IMG/VR virus record: IMGVR_UViG_3300007514_000005
Coordinates: 8,009-72,008 of that record
Length of the DNA: 64,000 bases
Origin: a virus
Strand: one strand, 5' to 3'
The position numbers and the translations under genes were made by a program. The notes under the pieces are model-generated. The model was not told the DNA's origin. It worked only from the letters and a program-made list of their open reading frames with translations, and did not search any database. Position 1 is the first letter of the stretch, and every line of letters starts with the position of its first letter. Positions 11,681 through 64,000 of this stretch are shown here, piece after piece.

Positions 11681-11681
11681 A

Positions 11682-11942: not shown

Positions 11943-11956
11943 TCCTTAAATACAGT

Positions 11957-12205: not shown

Positions 12206-12321
12206 TGATGAGGAAGGTCTAACGCTTGATGTAGGCGGTTGGTTAGGTTGGATACTAAGGAAAATAGGAATTTTAATCTAAGCACTATAACAAATGAGAA
12301 TACAAGCGGAAATGTGATTAA

Positions 12322-12489
12322 ATGGTGGGAAGATTAGGAAAAATTGTGTATCAACCACCGGAAAAGTCTTTCACAAAGATAAACATTGAAGAAACACTAC
12401 ATGGCTACAAAATATATAGGGTGGGAGAAGATAGGCCATTTACAGTAATACCGCTCTCGGCAGTTAAACAGATAATATACGATAGGTGA
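12322..12489 (+). CDS. Small hypothetical protein (55 aa, not in ORF track)
   Basis: Hand translation MVGRLGKIVYQPPEKSFTKINIEETLHGYKIYRVGEDRPFTVIPLSAVKQIIYDR*; fills the gap in the operon. Confidence 0.6.
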   Translation: MVGRLGKIVYQPPEKSFTKINIEETLHGYKIYRVGEDRPFTVIPLSAVKQIIYDR

Positions 12490-12899
12490 ATAAAATGACG
12501 GAAAATAATACAACGGGTCAAATAGAACCCGCAGAAATATGCTATAATGCACTAAACGAGACTGTGGCTTGCGTAAGTGAGTCGGCCTCTATCTTTGATG
12601 ATATAGAAGTAATCCTTCTTTCAATAGGTGTCCTTCTAGGTATTGCGGCATGGGCCAAGCAGAAGTATGCTTCTATGATGGCCGATGGTAAGATAACCCT
12701 TGATGAATTAACAGACTCAATAGGCGAGGCTAAGGAGAAGGCCGCAGAAGCAGAAGAAGCAATCAAGGACATAGAGACTACTCTTGAATCCCATAATGTG
12801 ACTGAATTGAAGGCAATGCTCAAGGAAGCAGGACTGTCCGTAAAGGGTAAGAAAGCAGACCTTATTGCCCGCCTTGAAGCACATAAGGGTGGAGAGTAG
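12486..12899 (+). CDS. Membrane protein with C-terminal SAP domain
   Basis: TM segment VILLSIGVLLGIAAW; C-terminal NVTELKAMLKEAGLSVKGKKADLIARL fits the SAP consensus. Confidence 0.75.
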   Translation: MNKMTENNTTGQIEPAEICYNALNETVACVSESASIFDDIEVILLSIGVLLGIAAWAKQKYASMMADGKITLDELTDSIGEAKEKAAEAEEAIKDIETTLESHNVTELKAMLKEAGLSVKGKKADLIARLEAHKGGE

Positions 12900-26900: not shown

Positions 26901-28903
26901 ACCCTAAACCTAATGTTGGCGATACTACTACATGGAAGGTTCTTGAGCACCCCGAAATAACAAACAGTATAGAAGCGTTGTCCGTAGCAAAGGCAGAATA
27001 TAATGCCCGTAAGAAAAACCCAATAGAGTTAGATGTAGAAATGCTTAGGCTACACGCAGACGATAGAGACGCAATGTTAGATGGTGGAAGATACGGCTAC
27101 ATAGCAGACGCGCAGGTGGCTCTACAAGGCAACAACGACCAATCATTAGGCACGGCTTGGTGTTGGACTATCATGGGAACGGGGGGCGTGCCGTTTAGCG
27201 GGATGACTAACGGGATTGATGGAAATATGGGTGCAGTAGTGACTAAGGATACTCTTCATAAGAGATACGGTTCTTCTGCCCCTGTCGGTAGCGGCACTAT
27301 TGAGCATAAGGATAACTACACTTGGTATGGCTCTCGGTCTGTATCTAACGCCTTACAAATAGTCCATGTGGGTAAGGATGCACCAAAGGTAAGTGAGACT
27401 ACCGGAGAAAAACTAAGAGTCGTAGTAGCCATTAAACCCTCACAAGCAGGCACTACAACCATAGAAACTACACAATTCAGGGTCTTTTTACTTGACTGTG
27501 CCTTTGCTACTACTACATCGAGTGGTTATGGGCCTGATTTGAAGTCGGCTATCGAAGGACATTCTTACCTAGATGTGCAATACAATGGTTTTTATGAGAT
27601 TGATGTTCCTTCTTCATACGGAACGGGTAAGGTAGTGTTCTCTTTCAACGCAGACTATTGCCGAGACCTACTCAGAAGCCGATGTGGAGACCCGACAAGT
27701 TATCCTACTGTGCTTAGAAATTCTTTAACCTACTTGGGAGACACCACTAACAAGACCGTCACTTTGGAAGGCAATAACAACCTAAGTAGTATCTTCCCTC
27801 TTGGTTGTAGAAAGCAGACTAGCATGAAAGGTGGTTTTGGTGATGTAAGAGCCATGTGGTATGCACCAACCTTAAACATTATAGATGATGTTATGTATGT
27901 GCCTGCAACCTATGTGAAATACACAGATGCCGGATTCGATATAAACAATAAAACAATGGTTATAACAAATGTTGAGTGGAGAATTTCATTTGGCGAAGGG
28001 GAGACTGTTAAACTGTCTTTGAGAGAAGATGAATCAAATGCCGTAGGAAGTATTCTTTCGTATGTGTTTAAGCCCGTAAGCCCACCTAGTGCATCGGCAG
28101 GAGACCCGTCATCCACCATTGTTAATGTAATACCGCCGTCAGGTGGAGTAGGAGATGAAATAAAGCCCGATACACCAAGCGGTGGAAACAAACCTTCTGA
28201 TGAAGACGGATACTCCATAGGATACGGAGTAGGACTTTCAGACTTACCTGCGGGCTTGTATAGAACCCTCATGGGCGGTATGGATAACACAGGTAGTCAG
28301 TATTCATCTCAATATAGCAACAGCATTTTAGGACAGAACATTATGCCTACTACCCCCTCTAGTATGCGTGGTATGACCGGAGCACTAAGAATTCACCCTA
28401 CAAGTGGTTCGGCTACTGCTACCAAAAACGGAATAAATTTGCCGGGTAAAGGAAAGGAAGAAGGTGTAGGGGCAGAAGCAGAAAATAAATTTTCAAAGAA
28501 AGAAATAGAGCATACAGCAGAAGTTAGATTACAAACACCACCGGATGCAATAAACGATGAATTAAATATCACGGCTGATTTGAAATTACCCGCTACAACC
28601 AAGCAGGGTTCAGCCGTCCTTTATGTGCAGGCTACCTGCTTAGAGACAGGGGCAAGTATTTCTGAGGTTATTGGTGTGAATACAGGTTCTAACCTGAAAA
28701 ATATGCAATTGTGCTCAGCAGGAATTCTTACGGGGGCAGGCACTACGGGTAATACCATTGTAGTATCTTTGAGTAGAAGGTCGGGGGTAGGAGACGACAC
28801 GGCTCATTACACTACCATGTCTGTGGAGAATCTAAATATCAATTTCAGAAGGGCGGCTTTCCCTGCCGAGAATACAAGCAATGTATTCATGCCTTACTCT
28901 TGA
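20915..28903 (+). CDS. Giant tail-tip/baseplate or host-specificity protein (2662 aa)
   Basis: Directly after the tape measure gene; beta-rich with GSGY repeat motifs; last gene of the + strand module. Confidence 0.65.
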   Translation: MVRVVKDKYNLWLVGYYDDFNGARAISNDDNVPDNSSQGAFSHLFTHYGNPLNGEATLNPRYRWCYYDRTTVGGYPNADEPYMFSLAINRLLHNKGAFEWISHDVIRNYPSEPQGRSQLQYPDGHTNTNKFRIHPFSGGGDDAYQMFCNGHNTLGRYIVPTGDIDSSFGRRDMNGYGATWTSKTDGKNTWVKVNEMGGSNFGNDDAITMVRRAHLAGKWMGETLKQTSSTETMPLNVFAPVESPSGMPFLCVQQYNQTGNNSTPSIPTIYYDNSLNSRDTNDILHFRLAVRSFNGGTASNGKITPKVTIKAGYTGGPAAITNGITDMEAGLTGTPKISFDLDLTGYDTNPHLYTGNTTKIAYNNDDSWIDVDVHLNYDTGKFNVYQDGNLKLSNQSMSGAVAENMYGWAIFMHPTSGDDNVTSTLMLDRVALCRPLTDDPIGRDLPPINNMRASTTINGYSYCSFELIDDADNYDETNYGFSTDNYNHNFTSMFVGNKLADWGVVFFAGAGETGNHGIARIDRPVWRGLLKSIDLKENKDGRKIQFTAYDTLTSMDKTIPMWELGQNKTNDLETFSPYWAYDAEGLMQVMDLGSSSLKQFAANVGRDSSNSFENRLDQRTQLRTGHPIQMYVNEDASGPNNIEDDFEGAGVEYFYEDSTGIRFVLTGNPNMGASGNIVIDNTGIPAYDNLTLAITAHHSIDSTGATVAYNASHAQEVLTVAKGSGTGQFPFTEQYTNSIAYIGKYIGPSVAHDDENYSFTAGHNVDIMANYNRYMTFIENNPATWENGRGSIGGLRIIDAGSGYTVANNYYTLVDGVKEKKGNILLPAPVQPDPSAFPYWVGETATAEWESETTHINVGPETPTGDDTSVTWIEGRITDAIVTNGGSGYGYLNNGTSYNAMPDLTTVDRIQGTGTYNNSGATALTLNQTSNTWPVNNNHTGLNGVHIISGNSSHGAGSKMGYFNVLSGSHSSSGSGLVLKVTVNADENGATQNNSTVDIEVVAVGSGYALNDTLVATIEYFAPLPTIISLFVTVSSITQDAELEIIRAEQAYTDTLSFHMDTSQSAVLSTLSVGDEFVISGASSDYDDIRGKHTIKAIKKVLNYHGNPTAPNEKGRYLYQIQTYTPIPSGFTEGDFGDFDKKWGLMLSSYHYGALDQRLAWSKKTMATLTPKPASMTEDITSRAIHARWMRDLDDSLWFKYHFGRIGYNAQHSFNLVSAVDANANKIEVTQATYNAAPNAGVAEIVQPQPSINYETRKDLRDVFIYKCKYTEGGKWYLGACKYISISHPTTVNAWGDDSQLASQPVKINIIKHDNNYKHIWLLWADMRNDATADADGGKRKKDFGLKYPTADNYSFDIQFDDQFDEDGNPESFAELKIGEDLDVWEIDSTIDDSTGSPFSQPLDYDNMVVLTGSNFSSVGGKLSIAKTGHGLADDDYVGLINCGATYDKVHKVTVTNSDNFVLDVAYTSGFSGTIPKFFYAKTKGSSIDETYYRDWEGKGGAFVVVDTSKFFNLNTLSNKGKVGQDGGGETNLGDYYAVGVGDPVLIDSYYINAASTTATTNSNYRNHYNLDRMVANKTELASSIIKGHFWLEPTDTTIFSKHGLGRALGLTNGSNHRSTWYFLWNGKVEEDVFANTVTVASPSIGDKFWTITKSGATFISDGVVAGTYVENTSKPLVEGVGDSWKGGWKQKHYYRVKEVVSETQLKIERVIHYTPSETTRWGFEYGTTGESFSGFTHGLYVRPAGLDNDSITDGWATGNHLKIPKQLCNILVDTVNSGGTDNTWNPSGIETIFTERFKELVGTRNPIQYAHSSTDIDNNAFSVVEVYTSTANEFAYRLMMKINGKYKNTNGGTFYESDKMRTLWTNSLLRSWWADTKLTAMFDIQNVPISFDMTTYNTNSQYDSYGSMIDSNGDALMDTLKDTASNTGVGDENSLFTSFSWLVGRDNRFDFRPKYNSGYTITRDEVKISKFAMSQMERVDNVRVIYNQGMSITDYPKPNVGDTTTWKVLEHPEITNSIEALSVAKAEYNARKKNPIELDVEMLRLHADDRDAMLDGGRYGYIADAQVALQGNNDQSLGTAWCWTIMGTGGVPFSGMTNGIDGNMGAVVTKDTLHKRYGSSAPVGSGTIEHKDNYTWYGSRSVSNALQIVHVGKDAPKVSETTGEKLRVVVAIKPSQAGTTTIETTQFRVFLLDCAFATTTSSGYGPDLKSAIEGHSYLDVQYNGFYEIDVPSSYGTGKVVFSFNADYCRDLLRSRCGDPTSYPTVLRNSLTYLGDTTNKTVTLEGNNNLSSIFPLGCRKQTSMKGGFGDVRAMWYAPTLNIIDDVMYVPATYVKYTDAGFDINNKTMVITNVEWRISFGEGETVKLSLREDESNAVGSILSYVFKPVSPPSASAGDPSSTIVNVIPPSGGVGDEIKPDTPSGGNKPSDEDGYSIGYGVGLSDLPAGLYRTLMGGMDNTGSQYSSQYSNSILGQNIMPTTPSSMRGMTGALRIHPTSGSATATKNGINLPGKGKEEGVGAEAENKFSKKEIEHTAEVRLQTPPDAINDELNITADLKLPATTKQGSAVLYVQATCLETGASISEVIGVNTGSNLKNMQLCSAGILTGAGTTGNTIVVSLSRRSGVGDDTAHYTTMSVENLNINFRRAAFPAENTSNVFMPYS

Positions 28904-34742: not shown

Positions 34743-35031
34743 AAATTTTGCTTGTTGTTCCCATAAATGACGGACGCTTCTCTTGCCTTCTTACCACCAC
34801 GCTTTTCTTTGCGCTACCTAGATAATGGCTCAGTTTATCGGGCATTGGGCAATGCCTTGACTGTAATAGTGGTCTGTGTGGGTATTTGAGTAGCCTAGTC
34901 TCGTCTATAATTTCCTTAGCGCTCATCCACCTCTCGTCATTATCAATTAGGTGCTTCCTAACGGCGGGCCACCAAGAAGTGCTCCCGCGCATTTTACCTA
35001 TGCGTCTTGACCTTCTACCCATCAATACCAC
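34699..35031 (-). CDS. Basic winged-helix-like protein
   Basis: Basic sequence with WMSAKEII...YVYR pattern. Confidence 0.5.
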   Translation of the reverse strand: MVLMGRRSRRIGKMRGSTSWWPAVRKHLIDNDERWMSAKEIIDETRLLKYPHRPLLQSRHCPMPDKLSHYLGSAKKSVVVRRQEKRPSFMGTTSKIYVYRWCGDYDSDEE

Positions 35032-35317
35032 CTTTCTGACCTCTCGCTCTAGTAGGAATCTCGTGCTTAACTAGCCATTGGTTAATAGCGGCAGGGGTCA
35101 CACCAAATTCGGTTGCTATGTCTTGCATAGTCCTACCCTTACCCAAGTATTCATCCTCTAACCACAGGGGGTCTCGGTAATGCTTAGGCTTGGTCTTATC
35201 TACAAGCGTTAAATTAACGCTGTATTGTGCGTTGGTGGCTGTTGCGCCACCTTCTACACCATGCTCTATCATCATTCTCAATGTTGTAATTACATCTGCT
35301 ATCAAATCTTCATTCAC
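35015..35317 (-). CDS. HTH DNA-binding protein
   Basis: YRD-x-x-WL...Y...TMQDIATEFGVTPAAINQWL-x-KH-x-I. Confidence 0.8.
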   Translation of the reverse strand: MNEDLIADVITTLRMMIEHGVEGGATATNAQYSVNLTLVDKTKPKHYRDPLWLEDEYLGKGRTMQDIATEFGVTPAAINQWLVKHEIPTRARGQKGGIDG

Positions 35318-38697: not shown

Positions 38698-38949
38698 TCA
38701 CACTACCGCCACCAAGTCATATTCTTTCACGGCTATAATTCCGTCTCCTAAGTCAGCGCCCCCATCATAGGAAGCATCAGGAGCAAGCCTAACCTTGTCT
38801 CCTATCGAGAGACGAGTAGTAATCCTATCACCTATGGAAAGAACCTCATAGTCATTCGACTCACCGAGTATGAGACCGCTTGTGGTCTCGTCAGTTTCTT
38901 TAACCCTTGTAAGTAGAATGTGGTGGCCTAATGCTCGCATCAATCCCAC
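38698..38949 (-). CDS. groES: Co-chaperonin GroES-like
   Basis: ALG-x-x-ILL...ETTSGLIL...EVLSIG...IGDKV...E-x-DL-x-AVV; adjacent to groEL. Confidence 0.8.
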   Translation of the reverse strand: MGLMRALGHHILLTRVKETDETTSGLILGESNDYEVLSIGDRITTRLSIGDKVRLAPDASYDGGADLGDGIIAVKEYDLVAVV

Positions 38950-55638: not shown

Positions 55639-55936
55639 CTAGGCCTGTATTCGTGAATCGAGGACTTTCGAATGTCCATTTCGGACATTCGATTTTCCAC
55701 AGAATTTTTGCCTCTATCTTTCTTCTACGCGCACGCGCGAGGCGGCGGTGCAACGGGCATCCCCCTATAAACCTGCCGCAAACCCCCCAAATTAGCCCAA
55801 AAACGGCATTTGTAGCCAACAAAAACGACCACGCAAGCCCAAAATCGCTAGAAGGGGTCATAGAGCCATTTGTTTGCAAAACAGGTCATTACCTACCTGC
55901 GACCCCCTCTCGTGGCTATATATACGCTTAGAGACC

Positions 55937-56073
55937 ATTTGTAGCAAAGGCGATTTGTAGCAAGAGGATTTGTAGCGAACAGAAAAAAATTGTAGCGAAG
56001 AGATTTGTAGCCATGAAAATTTGTAGTGAAGAAATTTGTAGCCTTGAAAATTGTAGCCAACAAAATTTGTAGC
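55937..56073. repeat. Nine tandem direct half-sites A(T/A)TTGTAG(C/T) at 15-16-bp period
   Basis: Copies at 55937, 55953, 55968, 55988, 56003, 56019, 56034, 56049, 56065. Confidence 0.95.
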
Positions 56074-56164
56074 CACCGGACGCGGGCGCGCGGGCGCGCT
56101 TCGCTACAAATTGGTGCTTGAGAGGGCGAATCGGAAGGTTTATTAACTACCCCTATGTCTCACA

Positions 56165-56575
56165 ATTTGCCGCTCCTGTGGAGTGGTGTGCGTGACGGCG
56201 CGCGGGTATTGGTTGCTCGGAGACGGGTAGCCGTGTTGAGTCGGAGTCTAACGGGGAGACTCGGTAGTAGGGGAGTCGGGAGACGACCCGCGCTTAGGCA
56301 ATCTAACCGAGAAGAAAGTAAGACAACGCACTTCCGAACGGGAGCGGTGATTTGAGTAGGACTTGAAAGGATTACACTCGGCTGAAAAAGGGAATAGAGC
56401 CTACTCAATGATTGAGGGCAGGTCTGCTTCGGCGGACTTCGGTAGCACCGCACGCAGGGAAGGACTGCGCCCACCTTACGAGGACGCCTACGAGCCTTCA
56501 CCACTATATGATGCGTGATGCGCCGAGACACGGAAGTTAGAGGCTCGCGCCTTCGTCCGAGAACCAATATCCAAA
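56165..56575 (+). ncRNA. Candidate large structured ncRNA 1 (~410 nt)
   Basis: Promoter ATCGGAAGGTTTATT at ~56130; helices 56170-79/56338-47, 56204-21/56556-72, 56352-60/56400-08; UUCG hairpin 56421-36; no credible ORF. Confidence 0.7.
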
Positions 56576-56591
56576 TTTAACGGTGAAAGAA

Positions 56592-57020
56592 TCAAGCGCA
56601 CTTCGCGCAGACTACTCTCATTGGGTTGCTCGTAATATCCGCTTGCTTTACTTTTCTAGCGGTTGTCGCGGGTGCATTTTCGTTGCACCCAACACATACG
56701 CCTGTGCTACCGCGTAGCATCATCATAACAGGCGCGGCCTGAATGAATCCGGTCAAGTCAATTACTTTCACGGGTGTAGGAATGTTCTCTTTTCGGAGCA
56801 AGCGCCGCATCTTGTTGAGTCGGTGGTTCTCGCAGGTCGTTTTATGGCTTCGGCCTTTTATCGCTCCACAGCATTCGTGCCTCTCTCGTCCTTCCGAGAA
56901 TCGCCCGTTGCTTTTTCCGGTGCGTGCCTTGCTCTCGCCTGTGGCCTTGCCGCCCTTGCGACCTGCCGCTTGCTTTTGCTTGTCTGTGGCCTTGAATGTG
57001 CCGTCCTCATACCTGCGCAT
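56592..57020 (-). CDS. Basic protein with KGG motif and Cys/His clusters
   Basis: Start placed at 57020, just after the cassette-type promoter GACCGACAGGTTCATAAG (57060-57043); AAGRKGGKATG, CCG...H...C, CVGC...CAKC. Confidence 0.7.
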   Translation of the reverse strand: MRRYEDGTFKATDKQKQAAGRKGGKATGESKARTGKSNGRFSEGRERHECCGAIKGRSHKTTCENHRLNKMRRLLRKENIPTPVKVIDLTGFIQAAPVMMMLRGSTGVCVGCNENAPATTARKVKQADITSNPMRVVCAKCA

Positions 57021-57098
57021 AATAGGGTCACGCGGGCATTTGCTTATGAACCTGTCGGTCATCGAAAGGTTTAAGTGCAAACGCCTCTCCCCTCAATT

Positions 57099-57475
57099 TG
57101 TAAGTCGGCGGGGAACTGAACACTCCCTGCCTTGAAGCCATCGAGAACGCATGAGTGCATACGAGCGCCCTTCGGGGAAGCGACATGACGCAAGGCCCAA
57201 TGGCGGGTCGCGTGGAGACAACCAAATAGGGGGAATCTGCGAGCGAGTTAGGACTACCCTATCGGTGGCGAGGCAAAAGGGAGCGAAATAACGAAAGCCG
57301 TGAAGACGAACCGCACCTGCCTTGAGATGGGTTAGCGCCCATCTCTCGTAGGTTGCCCTCAACGGGGGTGAAGGTCGGGGTTGTTCAACCCGTCAGACTT
57401 GGTGCGAAAAGACCCGTCTCGGTCTCGCCCACCTTGCGGAAGGGTGGAGAACAGGAGCGAGGCGGGCAACCCATT
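57099..57475 (+). ncRNA. Candidate large structured ncRNA 2 (~380 nt)
   Basis: Promoter ATCGAAAGGTTTAA at 57061; AAGTCGGCGGG (57102) pairs with CCCGTCAGACTT (57389-57400); hairpins CCC-TTCG-GGG, GAGATGGG/CCCATCTC, CCACCTT/AGGGTGG. Confidence 0.6.
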
Positions 57476-57916
57476 ACTAATAAAGGTAAAAGAACCGCGC
57501 AGAAATTGTAGCAAGGACAAAAAGTGCGTGGGGATTTGTAGCCATGAGAATGTAGGCCCGCCAATTTGTAGCGAGCGGCGGGAGACAGGGGGTTAATAAA
57601 CCTTTTCTTTTAGGGGTAATTTGTAGCACACTCGGTGTGCCGCAAAACACCTACCCTGCATATCACACTAAGTGCATTTTCTACACCTACTTTCAAATTT
57701 GTAGCAAGTTTTTTTCACGCACCGGATAAAATTTGTAGCAAAGACTTTTTTGCGCGCGCAAAAATTTGTAGCAAAGGGCGAAAAACCGCCAAAACACTAC
57801 AAATTTGTAGCAAAGAGGCCTTTTTCTCATATATAAACAAAATTGGCTACAAATTTGTAGCAAAGGGGGGAATAAGCCACCGACAGGTTCATATAGGCAC
57901 ACCCTGTCCGCTAAAC

Positions 57917-58195
57917 ATGGACTACCACAAGATAGAGCCGGAACAAAGCGAGCAAATGAAGAAATTGCAAGCGATAGAGGATGCGGGAGAGTGTGCGAGC
58001 CTGACTTGCATAGAACACTTCTGTATGGTATGCGCGCGTAAAGGAATTGTAGGGCGTATAGTAAAGGGATGGAGAATTTGCGAAGCAAGCAAACTCTACA
58101 AGGCGCAATTACACATTGTTGCCGACTGTGAAAACTGCGGTGAGATTATGCACTTCAATTGGATAGACCGAGACAAGATTGAGGGGGGGTATTAA
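57917..58195 (+). CDS. Cassette ORF, Zn-binding (92 aa)
   Basis: Start after promoter CGACAGGTTCATATA; CMVC...CENC; the ORF-track upstream extension runs through repeats. Confidence 0.7.
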   Translation: MDYHKIEPEQSEQMKKLQAIEDAGECASLTCIEHFCMVCARKGIVGRIVKGWRICEASKLYKAQLHIVADCENCGEIMHFNWIDRDKIEGGY

Positions 58196-58200
58196 ATACT

Positions 58201-58320
58201 ATGACTGAGTGCGAAGAGTGTGGAAAAAAGGCGACCGTGAAAACATGGAGCATGGGAGACGAGATTTACATTGAGGTTTGTTGCGTGTATTGCAACCTGA
58301 CCGCCGCCTACGGTCTTTAG
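58201..58320 (+). CDS. Cassette ORF, Zn ribbon (39 aa)
   Basis: MTECEECGKKATVKTWSMGDEIYIEVCCVYCNLTAAYGL*, followed by a T-run. Confidence 0.65.
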   Translation: MTECEECGKKATVKTWSMGDEIYIEVCCVYCNLTAAYGL

Positions 58321-58451
58321 TTTTTTAGGGCGCAAAGAAATTTGTAGCAAACGCTTTTTCAACAGGGGGGATAACACACGCTACAAATTTGTAGCAAAGG
58401 GAAGAATGGAAGAGCGACAGGTTCATAAGGGCAAGCCTCTTCGGTCTAATC

Positions 58452-58631
58452 ATGCTAACAAGGAAGCATTACCAAAAGATTGCCGCCGCTATTGCGGCAG
58501 TTGATGACCCACAAGAGAAAGCCACAGCATATATGACGGTGATAGATATGTGCCGAGAGTCGAACCCAAGATTTGACGAGGACAAGTTTTGGGATGCGTG
58601 CGACTTCCCTGACGGGTTCAGGATTGAGTGA
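58452..58631 (+). CDS. Cassette ORF, small phage protein of the M-x-TRK-x-Y...NPRFD-x-x-x-F-x-x-AC type (59 aa)
   Basis: Hand translation; promoter CGACAGGTTCATAAGGG at ~58414. Confidence 0.75.
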   Translation: MLTRKHYQKIAAAIAAVDDPQEKATAYMTVIDMCRESNPRFDEDKFWDACDFPDGFRIE

Positions 58632-58632
58632 G

Positions 58633-58764
58633 ATGAGAGCGCCAACCTACGAAGAGTTTAAGGCCCACATTTGGCCCGCTTGGAGTGAGAAGGGGCAGAC
58701 CGAGCACGAGTGCGAAGAGGCCTACCTGTGGTTCATTCGCGGGCGCAGGTCTGTGAGGTGGTAA
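58633..58764 (+). CDS. Cassette ORF (43 aa)
   Basis: MRAPTYEEFKAHIW...; followed by a hairpin plus T-tract. Confidence 0.6.
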   Translation: MRAPTYEEFKAHIWPAWSEKGQTEHECEEAYLWFIRGRRSVRW

Positions 58765-58919
58765 GCGGGGGCGTTGCCCCCCTTCCCCTTTTTTCTATAC
58801 TCCTGAAAAATTTGTAGCAAAGAGGGCGTGAGGCGGTTGTGCCGTAGGCTACAAATTTGTAGCGAAGAGAAGAATGCTTGACCGACAGGTTGATAAGGGG
58901 AGAGCGAGTGGAGTAAAAT

Positions 58920-59153
58920 ATGGCGACAGTCATTGAGGACGAACAACCGGAAGGAATTATAGAAGCGAAGATGGGCAAGCAGGATAGCCTGTGGGTAGAT
59001 ACCCCACGCGGTCTCCTGCACATATTCGTGCGTGGAGACGGCACATGGAAGATGACCGCATGGAACAGCGGCGGTAAGAATGCACCCAAGATTACTAAGA
59101 GGAAGAAGAAGGGGCGCACCTACTACCACCTAAGCCAAGTCTTGAACGAGTGA
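58920..59153 (+). CDS. Cassette ORF (77 aa)
   Basis: Promoter GACCGACAGGTTGATAAG at 58880; downstream GGGGC-GAAA-GCCCC terminator-like hairpin. Confidence 0.75.
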   Translation: MATVIEDEQPEGIIEAKMGKQDSLWVDTPRGLLHIFVRGDGTWKMTAWNSGGKNAPKITKRKKKGRTYYHLSQVLNE

Positions 59154-59340
59154 TTACGCAACAAAGAGAAGGGGGGCGAAAGCCCCTCTTTTCTATACCC
59201 GTGAAAAATTTGTAGCGAAGAGCGTAAAGCAAAAACACCGACTGCTACAAATTTGTAGCATAGAGAGCGTAAAACGAGGGCGCGGTTGGCTACAAATTTC
59301 ATACCGACACCCTTAAGTAGTCACCCCCCCTGCGACAAAC

Positions 59341-59682
59341 ATGGAGTTAGCAATACAATACGACATAGAAGCGACAGCAATGAACCGCGTTGAAGAGGGA
59401 GCAATGGAGAGCGAAGCAGATTTCTTCACGGGGGCAATGGCTATGTATTTGGCTCTCAAGCCGAAGAGTGAGGAAGATGGGTCGTGGTGTCCGCCTTCTT
59501 GGATATTCACTCTCATGGCGGGAGATAGTATAGTCGAGAAAGTAAGGGAAGAAGACGAGGCCGCAATGGAAGCAGACAGGCAGATGGAGAGGGCCGAGAT
59601 TGCGGCTGAGAACGCTTACGATGCACAGCGCGAGATTAGCGCTGAGATGTGCTATGACGACAGGTATGACGATTACTACTGA
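59341..59682 (+). CDS. Cassette ORF, acidic (113 aa)
   Basis: Promoter-like CCGACACCCTTAAG at ~59304; downstream hairpin GGGCGGGA/TCCCGCCC. Confidence 0.75.
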   Translation: MELAIQYDIEATAMNRVEEGAMESEADFFTGAMAMYLALKPKSEEDGSWCPPSWIFTLMAGDSIVEKVREEDEAAMEADRQMERAEIAAENAYDAQREISAEMCYDDRYDDYY

Positions 59683-59872
59683 TTGAGCGGGCGGGAAGGC
59701 ATCATCCCGCCCCTCTTTCTATCGCTGGGATAAATTTGTAGCAAAGGGGGAATGAAACGCGCGGACATGAGGCTACAAATTTGTAGCGTGCTGAGCGTGT
59801 GTGAGAAGAATGGTCGGTTGGCTACAAATATCCTATCGGTGGGTTTAATAGGGGAAGCGTCTAGGGCGGTAT

Positions 59873-60205
59873 ATGTCTAACAGACGGGGAAACCGGAAGC
59901 ACAACCGCGACAGGTTTGAGGGCGCACGCCTAAGCGACTCGGAGCGAGTCGAGTGCGCTAATCTCATGGATAGCATACGAGCGCGCAAGCCTCAGCAATT
60001 CCGTGCAGGGCGAGACCTATTGGTTGTGTTGAAGGATACAGGAAAAGTAAGAGAAGTGGAAGGAAGCAGGGGCGATATGATTTGCTGTATAGTGCGCGGC
60101 GGTGTCGAGCACACTTGGATGATGCGAATGAAGTCTCAAGTCATGGGCAAGAGTGCGAAGGGATGCAAGCAAAAATTGCGAGTGGATAAAATTCTTTGGG
60201 CGTGA
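59873..60205 (+). CDS. Cassette ORF, basic (110 aa)
   Basis: Promoter TCGGTGGGTTTAATA at ~59836. Confidence 0.75.
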   Translation: MSNRRGNRKHNRDRFEGARLSDSERVECANLMDSIRARKPQQFRAGRDLLVVLKDTGKVREVEGSRGDMICCIVRGGVEHTWMMRMKSQVMGKSAKGCKQKLRVDKILWA

Positions 60206-60394
60206 AACAAATACCCCTCTTGATTTGTAGCGAAGATTTCTTTAGCGCCTACAAAAATTTGTAGCGAACACACATGGGGAAGGTGAATGCGCACGGGCTA
60301 CAAATTTGTAGCCAACACACCGCAGAAATACAGCGCGGCTTTGCTACAAATTCGCAATCGAAAGGTTTAATACCCCACCCCCCTTCCCCTAAAT

Positions 60395-60830
60395 TGTAGG
60401 TCGTTGCCGACCTATGTTCCCCTACGGGGGGGCGGGTGCTCATTGGAGTCAGGTGGCGTTGAAACGCATCATAAGCCCGTGCAATGCTCGCAGAAGATTC
60501 GCGGGGTTGGAAACACGGGGGGATGGTCTGCCTTACGACTCTTGTTGAACGGGGTTCTCTTCTAGCGAAGTCGCGCTTGCGCGGCCTCTCCTACGGAGAT
60601 TAAATACGCGGCGGTGTCGCCCCAATTATTCGGGAGTCGAGGGCAGGTATCGAGGGTGTGTAGTGTTAGGAAGAAAGGAGTTCGCAGGTGAAACACCATA
60701 AGTCTGAATATGTAATTCGCGCGCGTGGCTTGGCTTCAATAGTATGGAAAGCGGGGGTCGCGCGCCCCTGTCCTCTCGCAAAGAGGCCACCGCTCGGCAG
60801 GGCGGCCCAACATAGTCGGCACGGCTTACA
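60395..60830 (+). ncRNA. Candidate large structured ncRNA 3 (~436 nt)
   Basis: Promoter ATCGAAAGGTTTAATA at 60357; 5' TGTAGGTCGTTGCCGACCTATGTT pairs with 3' AACATAGTCGGCACGGCTTACA; two C-TACG-G hairpins and a CTTG-loop hairpin. Confidence 0.75.
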
Positions 60831-61181
60831 CCTTTAGTTTTATCGCTATAAAATTTGTAGCGAATTAAGTTCGTTGTTTTTCTCGCGCGCTGAAAGAATA
60901 AAACGCATGACTGCTCCAAATTTGTAGCAATTCTTTATTTCCTTCTATTATGTTTTAGAGTAATGCCCTTTCTATAACTACTATTGAAAGAATAGAATAA
61001 ATACAAATTTGTAGCGCAGTAGCCCGAATAATTCTTTTTCCTCTTTTCAGAATTATTGAAAGAATTACTACAAATTTGTAGCCAACCGTCTGTTGTGGGC
61101 CTTCGCGCGCGTCACCCGTGACGCCCTTTGCTACAAATTTCACATCGGCAGGTTCATAAGGGGAGACCCACTCGGTTGAAC

Positions 61182-61382
61182 ATGGACAAAAAGCAGAAGC
61201 GCTACATTGAGCGCATTGTTATGGCGGGCCTAAGAATGATTGGCGAGAACGATGAGGGAGAGCCGTTGGAGACCTTCGGCGACCTCTTCAAAGAGCATGA
61301 CGCGGTGATGGCTCTTCTCGGTCTTGACGAAGAGTCAAACCTTGTTTTCGGTGAGGAAGCAATACTGAAAGACCCGCAATGA
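61182..61382 (+). CDS. Cassette ORF (66 aa)
   Basis: MDKKQKRY..., after promoter ATCGGCAGGTTCATAAGGGG (61144). Confidence 0.75.
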   Translation: MDKKQKRYIERIVMAGLRMIGENDEGEPLETFGDLFKEHDAVMALLGLDEESNLVFGEEAILKDPQ

Positions 61383-61662
61383 GGGGGGGCGCGCACCCGC
61401 TTATAATGTTTTCTTTACCCCGTAAAAATTTGTAGCAAAGAGCACTTCTTTCTTTGTGCGCACCGCACACGCGGGCCGTTGCCTACAAATTTGTAGCGAA
61501 GAGCGCTTAACCCCTACGCCCTTGCGCCTTACTGTATCAGACTACAAATTTGTAGTGAATGGTGCGTCTGTTGCGCCCCCGCGCGTGCGTCACGGGTGAC
61601 TTCGCTACAAATAAAACCTTATAAGGGGATACCCACTCGGATAGAATAAGGAGCGAAAAAAT

Positions 61663-61812
61663 ATGTATGTATATGGCTTAGGAGACGAACAAGAACGACA
61701 TAATATGTGGGATGACGAGGATTTGTGGAAGGAATGCCCCGATTGCGGCGCATTTAACTTCGTGGAATACTGCGGCGGGGCTGACTGCCTGACCTGTGGT
61801 AAGCAGTATTGA
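61663..61812 (+). CDS. Cassette ORF, Zn ribbon (49 aa)
   Basis: ...KECPDCG...DCLTCGKQY*; AAGGAG RBS; downstream GGGG-GCAA-CCCC hairpin. Confidence 0.7.
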   Translation: MYVYGLGDEQERHNMWDDEDLWKECPDCGAFNFVEYCGGADCLTCGKQY

Positions 61813-61887
61813 GACGGATGGGGGGCAACCCCCTTCCCTCTTTCTTCACATCGGTAGGTTTATAGGCAGACGCCTACTCGGTTAGAA

Positions 61888-61973
61888 TGGTGGTAGCCAC
61901 TCCGCCTGTTAGCGCAGGTAGCAAGGTGAGTGCGGTTCGCGCGGACTGCGGGTGCAAATCCCGATACCGCCAC
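61888..61973 (+). ncRNA. tRNA-like RNA (acceptor stem + T-arm, non-canonical middle)
   Basis: GGTGGTA (61889-95) pairs with TACCGCC (61965-71) plus discriminator A; CGGG-TGCAAAT-CCCG T-arm; own promoter CATCGGTAGGTTTATAGG; T-tract after. Confidence 0.6.
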
Positions 61974-62153
61974 ACTTTTCTTTACCCCTAAGAAATTTGT
62001 AGCGAAGCGACCGTCTGTTGTGCGCGCGCAAAAGCGTCACCCGTGACGGCTACAAATTTGTAGCCAACCCCACCACAGCCCGCCGCCCGCGCGGTAAAAC
62101 CCCCCGCTTGGCTACAAATAAAAGATTATAAGGGGAGACCTGCTCGGTTGAGC

Positions 62154-62267
62154 ATGGACGAACCACGCCCATGCGTAAGAGACATGATGAATGCGACAGG
62201 AATGAGTAGAGAGGAAGCAGAAAGGGAGTATGAGGCAATGCTTTACGCAAAATACTGCCCGCGTTGA
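62154..62267 (+). CDS. Cassette ORF (37 aa)
   Basis: MDEPRPCVRDMMNATGMSREEAEREYEAMLYAKYCPR*; promoter GATTATAAGGGG...CTCGGTTGAGC-ATG. Confidence 0.65.
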   Translation: MDEPRPCVRDMMNATGMSREEAEREYEAMLYAKYCPR

Positions 62268-62542
62268 GCGGACTTGTCTTGCGCTTATAGTCTTTTTCAT
62301 ACCCCATAGAAATTTGTAGCCAAGCGAACCACCTTCTCGCGCGCGGCACGCCCGCACCGATATAACCTACAAATTTGTAGCGTATCGAGAAGCAAACAAG
62401 CGCGCGTATTCTTCTTACGGTGTATTGACTACAAATTTGTAGTCTGCCGTGTTTGCGTGCGCGCGTCACGCGCGTTTAAGGTTTGCTTCGCTACAAATAT
62501 CTATGTCGGCAGGTTTATAACCCCTAACCCCCTCGTCTAATC

Positions 62543-62656
62543 ATGGAAGAGAAGTGGGAAGTCGAGGAAATGTATTACGACAAGCAATACGAGCAATGGC
62601 GCGTTGTTCTACGCAACACAGACACAGACGAGACCCGATGGGGCTATGTCGAGTGA
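62543..62656 (+). CDS. Cassette ORF (37 aa)
   Basis: MEEKWEVEEMYYDKQYEQWRVVLRNTDTDETRWGYVE*; promoter TCGGCAGGTTTATAA. Confidence 0.65.
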   Translation: MEEKWEVEEMYYDKQYEQWRVVLRNTDTDETRWGYVE

Positions 62657-63309
62657 GCGGAGCGCGTTTGCGCTTATAATCTTTTCTTTAGCGCTGATAA
62701 ATTTGTAGCCAAGCGTCTTTCTTTCTTTTTCCCGCGCGCGTCCAGACCACACACCCTACAAATTTGTAGCCTGTCGAGCGTTAAGACAACGCGCGCTTTT
62801 TGTGTAAAGGTTAATAGACTACAAATTTGTAGCGAAGTTAGGTTAAACAAAGGCGCGCGCCCTTAACCCTTATACTCTTTGCTACAAATTTTACTGCGCG
62901 TGGGTCTCCCCTTCCTTCCTATTTATCCGTGTAGGTGTAAGGATATAAACCTTACGGTTAAAGAAATTTGTAGCCAAGAGGGGTTAAACAAAACGCGCGC
63001 GTGCGGGGTAAGGGGGGTTGGGCTACAAATTTGTAGCGTATCGAACCCCCTTCAGAAAAAAGAGTGTAAAGGGAACGCGCCCTTAGTAGGCTACGAATTT
63101 GTAGCGTAGGGGGCTACCCCCTTACGCGCGTAAAACAAAAACAAAGGGGGCTACAAATTTGTAGCCAAGATACCTACAACAAAACAACCGCGCGAAACAC
63201 AAACGCGCTACGCTACAAATTTGTCGCTTGTTGTAGTAGAAAAAATAAATCGCTTCGCTACAAATACGCAACCGATAGGACTATAAGGGCGGGCCTACTC
63301 GCTCTAATC

Positions 63310-63504
63310 ATGCTATACCTAAGCATGGAAGAAGCCGAAGAAATGTATGACGACATGATAGACGAATGCTACGGTGAGGTGAATGTTGGAGTGACCTTCA
63401 ACGCCTCGCGCGTATTGAGGGAGTTAGACCCGATTGCCTACCGATGCGGGTTCAACGACTACATGGACAGCCTGTTTGAAGACGGCTACACCCTAACCGA
63501 CTGA
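63310..63504 (+). CDS. Cassette ORF, acidic phage-type protein (64 aa)
   Basis: YDDMIDECYG...S-x-VL-x-x-x-DPIAYRCG-x-x-DY-x-D; promoter CCGATAGGACTATAAGGG. Confidence 0.75.
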   Translation: MLYLSMEEAEEMYDDMIDECYGEVNVGVTFNASRVLRELDPIAYRCGFNDYMDSLFEDGYTLTD

Positions 63505-64000
63505 TTACGACACGCGCCCGTGTGCGCTTGGACTTTTAAGGATTTCCACATAAGGCGCTTTTTAGAGCGAGCGCGGGAGATTTGTAGCAAGACGCTTTTT
63601 AGGCCTCGCGGGAATTTGTAGCAAAGGCGGTTTTTAAGCCCCCCGAAAATTTGTAGCCAACAGAAAATTTGGTGCTTCGCTACAAATTTGTAGCGAAGAT
63701 ATTGAAAAATCGTAAGTCCTGAATTGAACCTAGAATTGGCTACAAATTTGTAGCAAACCACGATTGCCGAAATTCAAAATCTTGGCTACAAATAGTCAAG
63801 GATTACCGGATTCCGGAAATCTGATGCACAGGCTCGCAGTATAGCGATTCTGAGCAATTCTGAAAATCCGAATCGAAAAACCCCTAAATTTCGCAAATTT
63901 AGCAGGGTCGCCGCCCGCAAAAGTGCGCCAAAAGTGAATTATTCTTGGTAGAAACTCGGAAAAATTGAGACCATTACCGGAATTCGGACAGGCTCGCAGT

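Follow-up and report, generated by a model that had tools for sequence, protein, structure and literature searches.

Why does a tailed virus keep about 11% of its 72-kb record as an array of self-contained units separated by copies of one motif, and do these copies serve the exchange of the units or their regulation? The array lies at nucleotides 55808 to 63793 of the window, i.e. the whole 64,000-nucleotide stretch analyzed here (positions 8,009 to 72,008 of record IMGVR_UViG_3300007514_000005); coordinates are those of the window unless otherwise stated. The record is a complete tailed-virus genome of 72,008 bases with a 119-base overlap of its ends. It includes features of the group C magroviruses, namely a family B polymerase, an RFC-like clamp loader, a Hef/XPF-like nuclease, GroEL within the replication block, and an exonuclease adjacent to terminase and portal, and PMC5434244 ascribes the same gene content to that group. 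Judging from gene content and the literature, a marine group II archaeon is the probable host.

Organization of the array

An earlier note on this DNA described about 14 short transcription units. The short cassette array is there, with about 16 units by our count, and the unit pattern holds with the correction that the gene coding for a 142-aa protein is on the minus strand. The payloads are small ORFan genes or RNAs, each with its own promoter and terminator. The features are as follows (R, right half-site; F, full palindrome; L, left half-site).

55808..56111, + strand: left array boundary, about 10 direct right half-sites and one closing left half-site (56103-56111)
56128..56585, no strand assigned: non-coding block RNA1 behind a TATA-like box, present in RNA libraries
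56592..57020, − strand: cassette for a basic 142-aa protein rich in Cys, with a cassette-type promoter of its own
57066..57490, + strand: non-coding block RNA2 behind a TATA-like box, read from sequence
57505..57861, + strand: site cluster before the first protein cassette, 7 right half-sites at 30-78 bp spacing, then 2 palindromes
57885..58330, + strand: cassette 1, promoter box, 92-aa and 39-aa Cys-rich ORFs (57917-58195, 58201-58320), hairpin/T-run
58419..58800, + strand: cassette 2, promoter, 59-aa and 43-aa ORFs (58452-58631, 58633-58764), terminator
58887..59200, + strand: cassette 3, promoter, 77-aa ORF (58920-59153), terminator
59300..59722, + strand: cassette 4, promoter, 113-aa ORF (59341-59682), terminator
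59841..60215, + strand: cassette 5, promoter, 110-aa ORF (59873-60205)
60363..60845, + strand: cassette 6, structured non-coding RNA3 of about 450 nt, no ORF
60854..61138, + strand: spacer of pattern R F R F L, sites 63-87 bp apart, some intervals with a CG run in the middle
61150..61420, + strand: cassette 7, promoter, 66-aa ORF (61182-61382), terminator
61615..61850, + strand: cassette 8, promoter, 49-aa Cys-rich ORF (61663-61812), terminator
61856..61990, + strand: cassette 9, promoter, cloverleaf-like RNA of about 90 nt
62122..62300, + strand: cassette 10, promoter, 37-aa ORF (62154-62267)
62511..62700, + strand: cassette 11, promoter, 37-aa ORF (62543-62656), terminator
62889..62967, no strand assigned: gene-less unit flanked by left and right half-sites, minus-strand TATA-like box, read from sequence
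62967..63265, + strand: longest lattice, right half-site, four palindromes and left half-site, with mid-interval CG runs
63277..63560, + strand: cassette 13, promoter, 64-aa ORF (63310-63504)
63581..63793, + strand: right-hand site cluster R R R F F L
Record positions 1220-1564, outside the window: convergent gene for a 114-aa predicted winged-helix protein

The order of promoter, gene, and hairpin and/or T-tract reported earlier is borne out by an ungapped alignment of 76 cassettes anchored on the ATG, in which a TATA-like box occupies −30 to −23, and by the 27 hairpin plus T-run sites found as compared with 11 ± 3.3 in shuffled sequences. Sigma-70-like sites number 12 versus 7.0 ± 2.3, an unclear enrichment, and are not located at unit starts. 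The box has the appearance of an archaeal BRE/TATA element followed about 22 nt later by the ATG, which is the likely transcript start and suggests leaderless mRNAs. Cassette 8 is the sole long-leader cassette in the window; its leader of about 22 nt has a Shine-Dalgarno-like AGGAG ahead of the ATG.

The RNA evidence consists of assembled contigs, taken from the study to which the probable source sample belongs, and is silent on strand and ends. The array part most abundant in these libraries is RNA3 (contigs 60469-60807 and 60532-60812, depth 106-113), which has a fold z-score of −2.88, none of 100 shuffles being equally stable. RNA1 is covered by contigs over 56101-56382 and 56169-56520 at a depth of about 12.5, one of which begins upstream of the predicted start; its fold z-score of −0.72 is not significant. 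Contigs were also found over cassette 4 (59358-59658) and cassette 5 (59740-59969 and 59879-60029), and one of low depth spans a spacer. RNA2 has no RNA contig, and it is conserved together with its flanks at 76% in relative L052. Rfam yielded no match for RNA1, RNA2 or RNA3, and the cassette 9 RNA was not called as a tRNA (fold z-score −1.25, not significant).

The 142-aa gene is the only minus-strand cassette and the only array gene conserved across the motif lineages (62-66% identity in G001, G002 and G003, and 54% in L021); a weak KGG match (E 0.065) was all that Pfam returned for its product, and the cassette 1 ORFs showed no significant Pfam family. The most widely shared cassette is number 13, with 91% amino acid identity in G001, 56% in G002, where its context is different, and about 52% in the TTGG lineage. 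The 59-aa gene of cassette 2 occupies a different array position in G001, G002 and L052, and homologues of the 113-aa protein of cassette 4 were found in G002 and L052 only. The gene-less unit is well conserved in L057, and the left-boundary block, which includes nine half-sites spaced 15-20 bp at 55938-56066, is kept in G001 at 67-83% identity. At the other end the array continues over the overlap of the record ends, with a left half-site (record position 137) followed by a 262-aa gene (235-1023) outside the window.

That this arrangement arose by misassembly, or that it is a repeat-spacer array of the CRISPR or TIGR kind, is extremely improbable. Short palindromic repeats with variable intervals of 30-46 nt give it a superficial repeat-spacer look, and the array of G003 contains an N-gap. 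However, this stretch is whole within one 44-kb contig of a run that is possibly the source, and related arrays with the same architecture come from independent assemblies in IMG/VR, Tara and other metagenomes. Orthologous spacers are recognizably homologous, with point changes (68% identity) and a CG run at a fixed position, unlike acquired spacers, and they are interleaved with promoter-gene-terminator units. No Cas-type family was found among about 60 proteins scanned, save a weak Cas4-like nuclease match (E 1.4e-4, below cut-off).

Grammar, register and conservation of the sites

The 16-mer GCTACAAATTTGTAGC is present in 23 copies (up to 2 mismatches), all at 57796-63754, while 0.01 are expected from shuffles. 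Its right half-site, ATTTGTAGC, has 49 copies in the whole 72,008-base record, 48 of them in the array on the + strand and 1 elsewhere, and all 24 copies of GCTACAAAT are located in the array or just beyond the record junction. The 13 cassette ORFs and 4 RNA blocks, which amount to 4,213 of the 7,986 nt of the array, include none of the 88 half-sites (up to 1 mismatch), in agreement with the claim that the motif is absent from the cassette genes. The proposed spacer grammar also stands: a right half-site comes first, then palindromes, and from 59.3 kb on a left half-site comes last. It extends to 15 dereplicated arrays, where the nearest site upstream of the payload is of the left type in 67 of 88 cases and the nearest one downstream of the right type in 78 of 88. 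RFL is the commonest of the 74 internal spacer strings of these arrays (23), with RF found 10 times and RRFL 8 times. Site totals are 440 R, 194 L and 227 F, half-sites thus being commoner than palindromes.

Distances within the modules are constrained. The T-tract precedes the right half-site by 15-21 bp, and the centre of the left half-site lies 34-36 bp before the ATG in 22 of 58 cases and 44-47 bp before it in 27. CG runs (CGCGCG) are centred about 30 bp past a site, and 22 of the 27 genome copies of GCGCGC are within the array. Spacings between sites peak at 14-16, 30-31/34-35, 45-47 and 61-62 bp, and the Rayleigh R for 303 spacings is 0.456 at a period of 15.0-15.4 bp, the maximum of 500 uniform trials being 0.26. 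There is an off-register peak at 34-36 bp, and steps of 13-14 and 23-24 bp occur in other lineages. The longest lattice has spacings of 60-68 bp and then 45 bp.

Comparison of 628 nt of orthologous spacer between the window and L057 showed identity in 130 of 132 site columns, 53 of 58 CG-run columns and 297 of 438 other columns; the sites are under purifying selection. In the longest lattice, G001 keeps the palindrome positions and not the spacer sequence. Such retention of positions where the spacer has diverged marks the sites as more than passive remnants of duplication. The architecture is common to five lineages, with changed outer bases of the motif: the half-site ends are TAGC (window), TAGT (L010), TTGG-TAAG (L021/L022) and TAGA-TAA (L088/L089), and the L090 half-site is ATTGTAACC. 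The promoter box is unchanged in the TTGG lineage, the one checked for promoters.

These comparisons bear on the reading that there is no virus-specific factor, the motif being part of duplicated terminator and promoter boxes that the host machinery recognizes (through a transcription factor, TFB, a chromatin protein or a termination factor) or a structural DNA element made of an A3T3 bend and a CG run, in an array grown by tandem duplication. We consider it unlikely, although several observations agree with it. In the 35-bp class, the left half-site touches the BRE position or overlaps with it. Duplication is clearly at work, given that promoter and terminator boxes recur as well, and of 64 palindromic hexamers this genome tolerates only 17, AAATTT and CGCGCG included. 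In addition, the intergenic repeats of halovirus HF2 act as promoters in cells without other viral genes, according to PMC8707807. On the other hand, outer bases that vary by virus lineage beside a constant promoter box fit a virus-coevolving factor better than a host factor, the site positions are held in diverged spacers, and a search of 185,579 prokaryote species genomes gave no array-type match.

Shuffling of cassettes and breakpoints at the motif

Cassette order differs among 39 marine contigs, and 11 of the 15 cassette families with at least 3 members have at least 2 different neighbours. In a systematic scan of near-identical contigs for indels of whole cassettes or modules, 3 of 4 events have their ends in the motif or in repeats of 18-51 nt that carry it, and one further such indel was found outside the scan. 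A 410-nt cassette present in L076 and absent from L018 and L069 is flanked by two palindrome copies plus 3-6 nt. In an independent seawater run 2 of 5 joints end in the motif and 3 are within payloads; the joints 62049->62366, by which cassette 10 is absent from a related seawater population, and 61497->61557 go from palindrome to palindrome. One 170-nt deletion is inside a coding region, away from the motif. As an outcome, then, the earlier idea of recombination handles is upheld, with content and order varying among relatives.

The mechanism suggested with it, an integron analogue in which a site-specific recombinase crosses over at the palindrome and moves units as circles, with regulation secondary, is very unlikely. 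The palindrome-bounded events and the shuffled order agree with it, and a 6-bp AT core with 5-bp inverted arms could resemble a recombinase core. However, no tyrosine or serine recombinase was detected in the complete genome (controls were positive in 14 and 12 of 14 genomes), and each cassette has its own promoter. A crossover site needs neither an excess of half-sites nor their direct-repeat clusters, and phased multi-site lattices and fixed TATA and T-tract positions are unneeded for recombination. The other indels end in the longer motif-bearing repeats, as homology-driven exchange predicts, and these repeats are long enough for ordinary short-homology recombination. Since sites of 16-22 bp and promoter/terminator boxes of about 40 nt recur some 50 times, short-homology exchange deletes, duplicates and reorders intact units.

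A candidate binding protein and the proposed role of the modules

The 114-aa protein is the best candidate for a binder of the sites. For its structural model (mean pLDDT 81), Foldseek matched winged-helix domains of Fur/Zur, PadR/LmrR and MarR; the match is weak by E-value (best 1e-3, TM about 0.5), and a profile search found no solved relative by sequence. Homologues of the gene are a few kb or less from an array in every lineage with a visible flank, a co-occurrence that is not independent evidence, as both are confined to one virus clade. The putative recognition-helix positions vary even inside the TAGC lineage, with no clean protein-to-motif code.

This gene ends an exonuclease-terminase operon and abuts the array, a location as compatible with a packaging protein as with a regulator. 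In another reading the lattice would serve replication or packaging of the genome and not transcription, the clusters being origin iterons or a pac/small-terminase binding region and the 114-aa protein the initiator or small terminase, which we regard as quite unlikely. Iteron-like clusters of 9-10 direct half-sites 15-16 bp apart, a site cluster at the strand switch and cumulative GC skew minimum, the weak PHROG-free profile of the protein, and the failure to identify another small terminase agree with such a role. Yet neither an origin nor pac needs more than 50 sites distributed along 8 kb and marking each unit boundary with the R-F-L grammar, and GC skew tracks transcription direction here, so that an origin cannot be located by it.

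We give about an even chance to the interpretation that terminator, operator lattice and promoter form compound modules. Each unit consists of a BRE/TATA box, an ATG or RNA gene, and a GC hairpin and/or oligo-T terminator, and each spacer module runs from a right half-site about 15-20 bp past the T-tract through one or more palindromes to a left half-site centred 35 or 45 bp ahead of the next ATG. The sites would be operators for a virus-encoded sequence-specific protein, one subunit binding a half-site and two a palindrome, that may assemble cooperatively along the register of about 15 bp. Bound protein would bracket each unit, backing up termination past the T-tract and insulating the units from one another, and the promoter-proximal site would switch the whole block on or off together. 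The binding lattice of the earlier note is thus supported indirectly by site selection, the register and the lineage variants of the motif, the binding step itself being putative.

The statement that the architecture matches no named system needs revision, as there are three published comparators: the PeSL, mobile regulatory cassettes of T4-type phages (PMC2839356), a TATA-plus-inverted-repeat motif of halovirus HGTV-1 (PMC3950731), and the promoter-bearing HF2 repeats (PMC8707807). The array likewise behaves as mobile regulatory cassettes, and its modules may be archaeal-virus analogues of the PeSL. The region can be considered probably an accessory gene block of a magrovirus-like tailed virus of marine archaea, probably expressed early, whose autonomous units would, on the best explanation, be transcribed by the host RNA polymerase.

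Genome layout and extent of the array

The ends of the 72,008-base record overlap by 119 bases, and the assembly therefore closes on itself. The genes are ordered as a structural block (+ strand), a replication block (− strand) and the array (+ strand).

Main features outside the array (window coordinates unless the record is named)
Structural block, + strand: portal, 1,963-aa protein, tape measure and 2,662-aa protein
Record 6852-12743: giant ORF of 1,963 aa in the structural block, without Pfam family
20915-28903: giant ORF of 2,662 aa in the structural block, without Pfam family
Large terminase, portal and tape measure: profile matches
517-aa "DNA repair exonuclease" between terminase and portal: phrog_704, E 2e-59
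Family B DNA polymerase, RFC-like clamp-loader ATPase and Hef/XPF-like nuclease: profile matches
Bacterial-type GroEL: profile E 1e-126, versus 1e-19 for thermosome profiles
38698-38949, − strand: GroES/Cpn10-like 83-aa gene directly upstream of GroEL; Pfam E 1.8e-4, just above the cut-off
Record 1220-1564: putative 114-aa winged-helix gene

Among deposited phage genomes, haloarchaeal tailed viruses gave the closest polymerase matches, about 24% identical. Magroviruses, which have been assigned to marine group II archaea (Philosof et al. 2017, PMC5434244), are described in the available parts of that paper as joining a head-tailed structural module to a family B polymerase, clamp loader, MCM, RadA-like protein, primase and nucleases. 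For group C magroviruses the same description names two traits, a bacterial-type GroEL within the replication block and, inserted in the structural block, a gene for an exonuclease (PolD small-subunit-like). Both traits are present here, the likeness to group C being one of gene content set against published descriptions. The reported magrovirus genome size is about 100 kb, compared with 72 kb here, and the same parts of that paper do not expect a co-chaperonin in magroviruses (PMC5434244). The profiles run identified no MCM, primase, clamp or RadA (0 matches to PF08423). The runs that contain the array came from marine or seawater metagenomes, apart from a single estuary run in which its share was small; small-share runs are no evidence on habitat. 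From gene content and the literature, the host is therefore taken to be probably a marine archaeon. The array-type pattern (palindrome-gap-half-site) had 0 matches among 185,579 prokaryote species, one genome each, and so provided neither a host link nor a provirus.

The cassette array with motif-bearing spacers proposed in the earlier note was borne out. The 16-mer palindrome occurs 23 times at no more than two mismatches, solely between 57796 and 63754, while shuffles lead one to expect 0.01 copies. The right half-site has 49 copies in the record, 48 of them inside the array on the + strand and one elsewhere; left half-sites lie in the array or just past the record junction in 24 of 24 cases. 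The exclusion of the motif from the cassette genes also held, as 0 of 88 half-sites (at most one mismatch) fell in the 13 ORFs and four RNA blocks that take up 53% of the array region. At the same tolerance the remaining 55.7 kb of the window include 12 half-sites. Beyond the window end follow the last left half-site, a leadered 262-aa gene, a terminator and then the convergent exonuclease-terminase operon. Between the last site cluster and this last cassette, at the overlap of the record ends, there is an approximately 30-nt direct repeat, ATTACCGGA...GGCTCGCAGTA, in two copies about 170 nt apart (63806-63841 and 63975-64000), which could mark a packaging or replication start. A similar ATTACCGG block follows the sites in L010, one of the related marine viral contigs with the same type of array.

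The motif is set in a genome that avoids palindromes. As many as 47 of the 64 palindromic hexamers are absent from the whole record, although base composition predicts about 809 occurrences, and GATC, GTAC, ACGT and AGCT have 0 copies each where about 275 each are expected. This avoidance suggests strong pressure from host restriction systems. Tolerated palindromes include AAATTT (81 copies) and CGCGCG (37 copies), with the majority of copies in the array; the 16-mer and the CG runs of the spacers are therefore drawn from few tolerated palindromes. CATATG has 0 copies in the record, and the array palindrome, a 16-mer with an AAATTT core, is unlike ACCATATGGT/CCATATGG.

Promoters, terminators and transcripts of the cassettes

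Cassette promoters were compared in an ungapped, ATG-anchored alignment of 76 cassette starts from 15 dereplicated arrays, which left out L010, 23 redundant contigs and 12 payloads without an early ORF. In the alignment a TATA-like box occupies −30 to −23, and a short stretch of conserved sequence lies near −10. Judged from sequence, the arrangement is that of an archaeal TATA box whose predicted transcription start is the ATG. A cassette with a long leader (49-aa gene) has AGGAG ahead of the ATG, and the 262-aa last gene has GGAG in the same place. Sigma-70-like sites were not clearly enriched (12 versus 7.0 +/- 2.3 in shuffles) and were absent from unit starts. At gene ends, hairpins followed by a T-run were found at 27 sites, compared with 11.0 +/- 3.3 in shuffles. 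Two other promoter types were considered and dropped: Bacteroidetes-type promoters, because of the unfit spacing of the −7 motif, and promoters of a T7-like single-subunit polymerase, no such polymerase having been found and the giant ORFs being without a Pfam family.

A second promoter class, consisting of a TATA-like box followed by a GCGGATAG-like block and unlike the array promoter box, precedes several genes of the replication block (about 38.9-55 kb of the window, − strand; for example upstream of 40130, 41685, 50659 and 54974). It may represent a second temporal class.

Array units referred to in the text (window coordinates)
56128-56585: RNA1
56592-57020, − strand: 142-aa Cys-rich gene
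60363-60845: cassette of RNA3, an approximately 450-nt non-coding RNA
61884-61975: tRNA-like unit of about 90 nt
62889-62967: gene-less unit, TATA-like box on the − strand

The cassette proteins are 37-113 aa long and several are Cys-rich. Ten array proteins had no significant Pfam family, and when some 50 further proteins were searched against Pfam, NCBIfam and PHROGs no clear DNA-binding protein emerged apart from a sub-threshold HTH/HNH-like match for a 100-aa ORF (35015-35317).

Two metatranscriptome runs from the same study as the probable source sample include contigs 100% identical to parts of the array. Their depth was 106-113 for RNA3, about 12.5 for the RNA1 region, 10.8 for the 113-aa gene and about 2-3 for the 110-aa gene. 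These contigs have neither strand nor end information and DNA carry-over is possible, but the unevenness of their cover argues for real transcripts; array parts without RNA contigs are no evidence of silence. RNA3, which occupies its own cassette and has the highest depth in both runs, folds better than 100 of 100 shuffles (z −2.88), and in a related population an internal stretch of about 71 nt is swapped for 20 other letters. The fold energies of RNA1 and the tRNA-like unit were no better than those of shuffles. Searches of Rfam, at gathering thresholds for the window and at E<=5 for the array, returned only two chance microRNA look-alikes on the palindromes, and sensitive blastn found no recognisable copies of the three large non-coding blocks in G001-G003, L010, L021 and L022. 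Behind a cassette promoter, the unit at 61884-61975 can be drawn as a tRNA-like cloverleaf around a four-way junction, closed by a stem of 8 bp and with one hairpin that resembles a T-loop; ARAGORN called no tRNA, this unit included. The gene-less unit at 62889-62967 lies between a left and a right half-site and is better conserved in the related contig L057 than the adjoining spacers. It may act as an antisense promoter or give rise to a small RNA.

The half-site lattice and its candidate binders

The order right half-site, full palindrome, left half-site (R, F and L) that had been read from the window was confirmed over 74 internal spacers of 15 arrays, the commonest forms being RFL (23), RF (10), RRFL (8), FL (5) and RFFL (4). 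Among the sites directly ahead of a payload, 67 of 88 are L and 17 are F; among those directly after it, 78 of 88 are R. From the centre of L to the ATG the distance is 34-36 bp in 22 of 58 cassettes and 44-47 bp in 27 of 58, two classes that are one helical turn apart; the R site lies 15-21 bp past the T-tract. Distances from site to site peak at 14-16, 30-31, 34-35, 45-47, 61-62, 66-67, 78 and 89-90 bp. A Rayleigh scan of 303 spacings peaked at a period of 15.0-15.4 bp (R 0.456), where the maximum of 500 uniform trials was 0.26, and for the window alone R was 0.58 at 15.4 bp. The 34-36 bp peak is off this register and is without explanation. In L088 (8476-8695) half-site steps alternate between 14 and 23-24 bp, and in L090 (13227-13253) there are steps of 13 bp; the register of about 15 bp is therefore not universal in the family.

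The spacers also include CG-alternating runs, centred about 30 bp past the preceding site in 46-bp and 62-bp modules alike. The array, 11.5% of the genome, holds 22 of the 27 genome copies of GCGCGC. Archaeal nucleosome positioning was rejected as an explanation, as the CG run and the AAATTT core share a helical face in 62-bp but not in 46-bp modules.

Along 628 nt of orthologous spacer the window and L057 are identical at 130 of 132 site columns, 53 of 58 CG-run columns and 297 of 438 remaining columns. Ahead of the 64-aa cassette, the palindromes match in position between the window and the related contig G001, and the intervening sequence is unalignable. In distant relatives the architecture is kept and the outer bases of the half-site are changed, with the promoter box the same in the one lineage checked.

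Half-site variants in arrays of different lineages
Window lineage: ending ...TTTGTAGC; 49 copies in the record
L010: ending ...TTTGTAGT; copies uncounted
L021/L022: ending ...TTTGTTGG plus TAAG; about 30 copies each
L088/L089: ending ...TTTGTAGA plus TAA; 33-34 copies
L090: half-site ATTGTAACC; 24 copies

These comparisons indicate that the sites are under selection and lineage-specific. Since the place and symmetry of the motif are kept while its specificity bases drift between lineages, the pattern points to recognition by a cognate factor that evolves with the virus. A scan of viral contigs for the exact TTGG-type palindrome of the L021/L022 lineage gave mostly single chance matches. Acquired spacers of the CRISPR/TIGR type were not found, orthologous spacers being homologous (68% identity) with the CG run kept, nor was a CRISPR/TIGR effector family found in the proteins scanned, which are part of the ORFs of the genome.

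The earlier note had called for a scan of the genome for a recombinase or a DNA-binding protein that accompanies the motif. No tyrosine or serine recombinase was found; the scan did yield, within one clade, a putative winged-helix gene beside the arrays. This 114-aa gene is located at the end of the terminase operon and faces the array. Its predicted structure, from an alignment of eight rows, has a mean pLDDT of 81 with a core above 90, and Foldseek matched the model to winged-helix domains of Fur/Zur, PadR/LmrR and MarR-type regulators (best E 1e-3, TM about 0.5). A profile of the family had 0 matches at E<=10 to the sequences of solved structures. The family includes 38 clusters among 5.8 billion proteins, all metagenomic, and its members lie within a few kb of an array wherever the flank is visible (L082 and L087 are contigs that stop short of it).

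Arrays adjoined by a homologue of the 114-aa gene
Window; G001/G003; L047; L057; L060; L073; L010; L021; L022; L088; L089; L090

This co-occurrence is a neighbourhood within one clade and not independent evidence. The putative recognition helix is variable even inside the lineage of the window (half-sites ending in TAGC), and its residues do not sort cleanly by motif variant. From fold match and gene neighbourhood we consider the predicted winged-helix protein a candidate binder of the sites; a small-terminase-like role equally suits it, given that the gene is placed in the packaging operon. The basic Cys-rich 142-aa array protein, common to several lineages, is a second binder candidate.

Cassette exchange and relation to known systems

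Thirty-nine contigs were cut at the sites into 179 payloads, which fell into 69 families. The gain and loss of cassettes that had been supposed is evident in these contigs, and cassette order and content are not identical among relatives.

Order of cassette families
Window: 7-11-0-4-1-5-...-2
G001: 15-9-6-4-3-5-.-0-10-12-16-2
G002: 17-18-7-.-1-3-2-0-4

Two or more different neighbours on one side were found for 11 of the 15 cassette families with at least three members. Even between the window and its closest fetched relative, L052 (76-89% DNA identity), the 59-aa, 77-aa and 113-aa units are reordered.

Breakpoints were sought in contig pairs at >=96% identity, where four distinct indels were recovered; the ends of BLAST blocks were not used because alignments run on through the conserved boxes regardless of the crossover.

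Indels between closely related contigs
410-nt cassette, L076: between two palindrome copies plus 3-6 nt
341-nt cassette, G003: between copies of a 51-nt motif-bearing repeat; adjoins an N-gap
47-nt module, L056
170-nt deletion within a gene: unrelated to the motif

The expectation that indel breakpoints fall in the 16-mer held in part: three of the four end within 14 nt of a site, two of them at distance 0, and the fourth is unrelated. Outside this systematic scan, L067 differs from L064 by a further cassette indel that ends in an 18-nt repeat with a left half-site. An independent seawater run contained a relative of the window at 90-99% with five joints. Two are palindrome-to-palindrome, removing a 59-bp module and a 37-aa cassette respectively, two are replacements within payloads, and one, with 21 letters on one side, is weakly supported.

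The integron-like logic that the earlier note had offered for this exchange was not supported. The complete 72-kb record had 0 matches to PF00589 (tyrosine recombinase), for which controls were positive in 14 of 14 genomes, and 0 matches to PF00239 (serine recombinase), and the cassettes carry their own promoter box. The likeness to integrons consists of tandem small gene cassettes, variable in order and content and joined at a recurring symmetric site; the differences are the lack of an integrase, a promoter box in every cassette as opposed to promoterless cassettes, and a junction that is a perfect 16-bp palindrome or a free 9-bp half-site and not, by description, an attC-type imperfect repeat. 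The genome encodes nucleases, and repeats of 16-51 nt are enough for homology-driven exchange. With these repeats and no tyrosine or serine recombinase, the shuffling can therefore be considered a consequence of repeated regulatory modules and not the work of a dedicated integron-like system. The array thus provides direct evidence at the population level for modular gene shuffling driven by regulatory repeats in archaeal viruses, as happens through PeSLs in T4-type phages.

Cluster A mycobacteriophages have stoperators, dozens of short asymmetric repressor sites in intergenic gaps that are oriented relative to transcription, are thought to silence by blocking RNA polymerase and serve immunity in bacterial temperate phages. 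Stoperators are not known to follow a palindrome/half-site grammar or a register, or to be linked to the shuffling of cassettes, and we take their resemblance to the array sites as a lead by analogy.

No named system had been recognised in this architecture, a view that does not hold, since as a functional kind the array is comparable to the PeSLs (promoter-early stem-loops), mobile regulatory cassettes of the T4-type phages phi1 and RB49 (Arbiol et al. 2010, PMC2839356). As described in the available parts of that paper, PeSLs have small ORFans in a hyperplastic block, each behind a repeated composite terminator-plus-promoter motif; close relatives differ by insertions, deletions and replacements that end in the repeated motif, and the units travel with their own promoter and terminator. 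Mini-circles have been shown for PeSLs, and shuffling through repeated regulatory modules has been proposed for them (PMC2839356). The composite motif between ORFans of a plastic region is present here, and the indels that separate close relatives likewise end, in most cases, in the repeated motif. The sigma-70 early promoter of a T4-type bacterial phage is absent: PeSLs have sigma-70 promoters with Shine-Dalgarno sequences (PMC2839356), whereas the array has archaeal-type BRE/TATA elements and predicted leaderless starts. Given TATA-type promoters with predicted leaderless starts and archaeal-type replication genes, the array is thus an analogue of PeSLs and not a member. What this archaeal virus has is an array of PeSL-like mobile cassettes that bear promoters and terminators. 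Beyond PeSLs, which as described have no such lattice, the array adds oriented half-sites and palindromes (1-5 per spacer) in a register of about 15 bp, a CG run, lineage-specific site variants and a candidate binder.

Archaeal viruses provide two further comparisons. In the halovirus HGTV-1 a conserved TATA-like box with an inverted repeat precedes most left-arm ORFs, a motif that its authors likened to PeSLs, suggesting roles in regulation and shuffling (PMC3950731). It is likewise an archaeal tailed virus in which many ORFs of one arm each stand behind such a motif; it differs in its haloarchaeal host and is only distantly related (the best matches of the present family B polymerase to haloviruses are about 24% identical), the comparison being with one description of HGTV-1. 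The class I and II intergenic repeats of the halovirus HF2 carry functional promoters and, beyond the TATA box, conserved blocks proposed to bind virus-encoded regulators, each class going with its own temporal set of genes (Russ, Pfeiffer and Dyall-Smith 2021, PMC8707807). The second promoter class in the replication block recalls these two classes. HF2 has seven class I and two class II repeats over tens of kb, before long operons and not in a dense array of mini-units, and the available parts of that paper describe neither a phased palindrome lattice nor cassette shuffling (PMC8707807). The 16-mer had no exact occurrence in the literature searched. A word search of the magrovirus papers covered found no mention of promoters, palindromes or intergenic elements, and nothing relevant was among the top matches of a topical search for magroviruses with cassette, ORFan or early genes.

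One proposal would join these features, and we regard it, taken as a whole, as unlikely. A virus-encoded winged-helix protein would polymerise on the register of half-sites, palindromes and CG runs to form one nucleoprotein scaffold across the whole 8-kb block. Under this scaffold some sixteen leaderless mini-genes, together with abundant non-coding RNAs, would be terminated, insulated and co-switched. The docking sites of the scaffold would also be co-opted as preferred crossover points of a recombinase-free cassette exchange, by which marine archaeal viruses would trade host-takeover genes across lineages, and the private site/protein specificity of each lineage would restrict that exchange to compatible partners.

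Magroviruses are abundant, and the archaeal group to which their hosts belong is among the commonest in the surface ocean. Because both virus and host are uncultured, nothing is known of how they control expression or acquire genes. From the array, the grammar of their promoters and terminators can be read, and its lineage-variable DNA motif and the candidate cognate protein lend themselves to in vitro tests that need no host culture. The cassettes and the highly expressed RNA of approximately 450 nt provide a catalogue of candidate host-takeover functions. A register of about 15 bp with a fixed CG run is unusual and, if it reflects a protein filament, would add a new case of chromatin-like control built by a virus in archaea.
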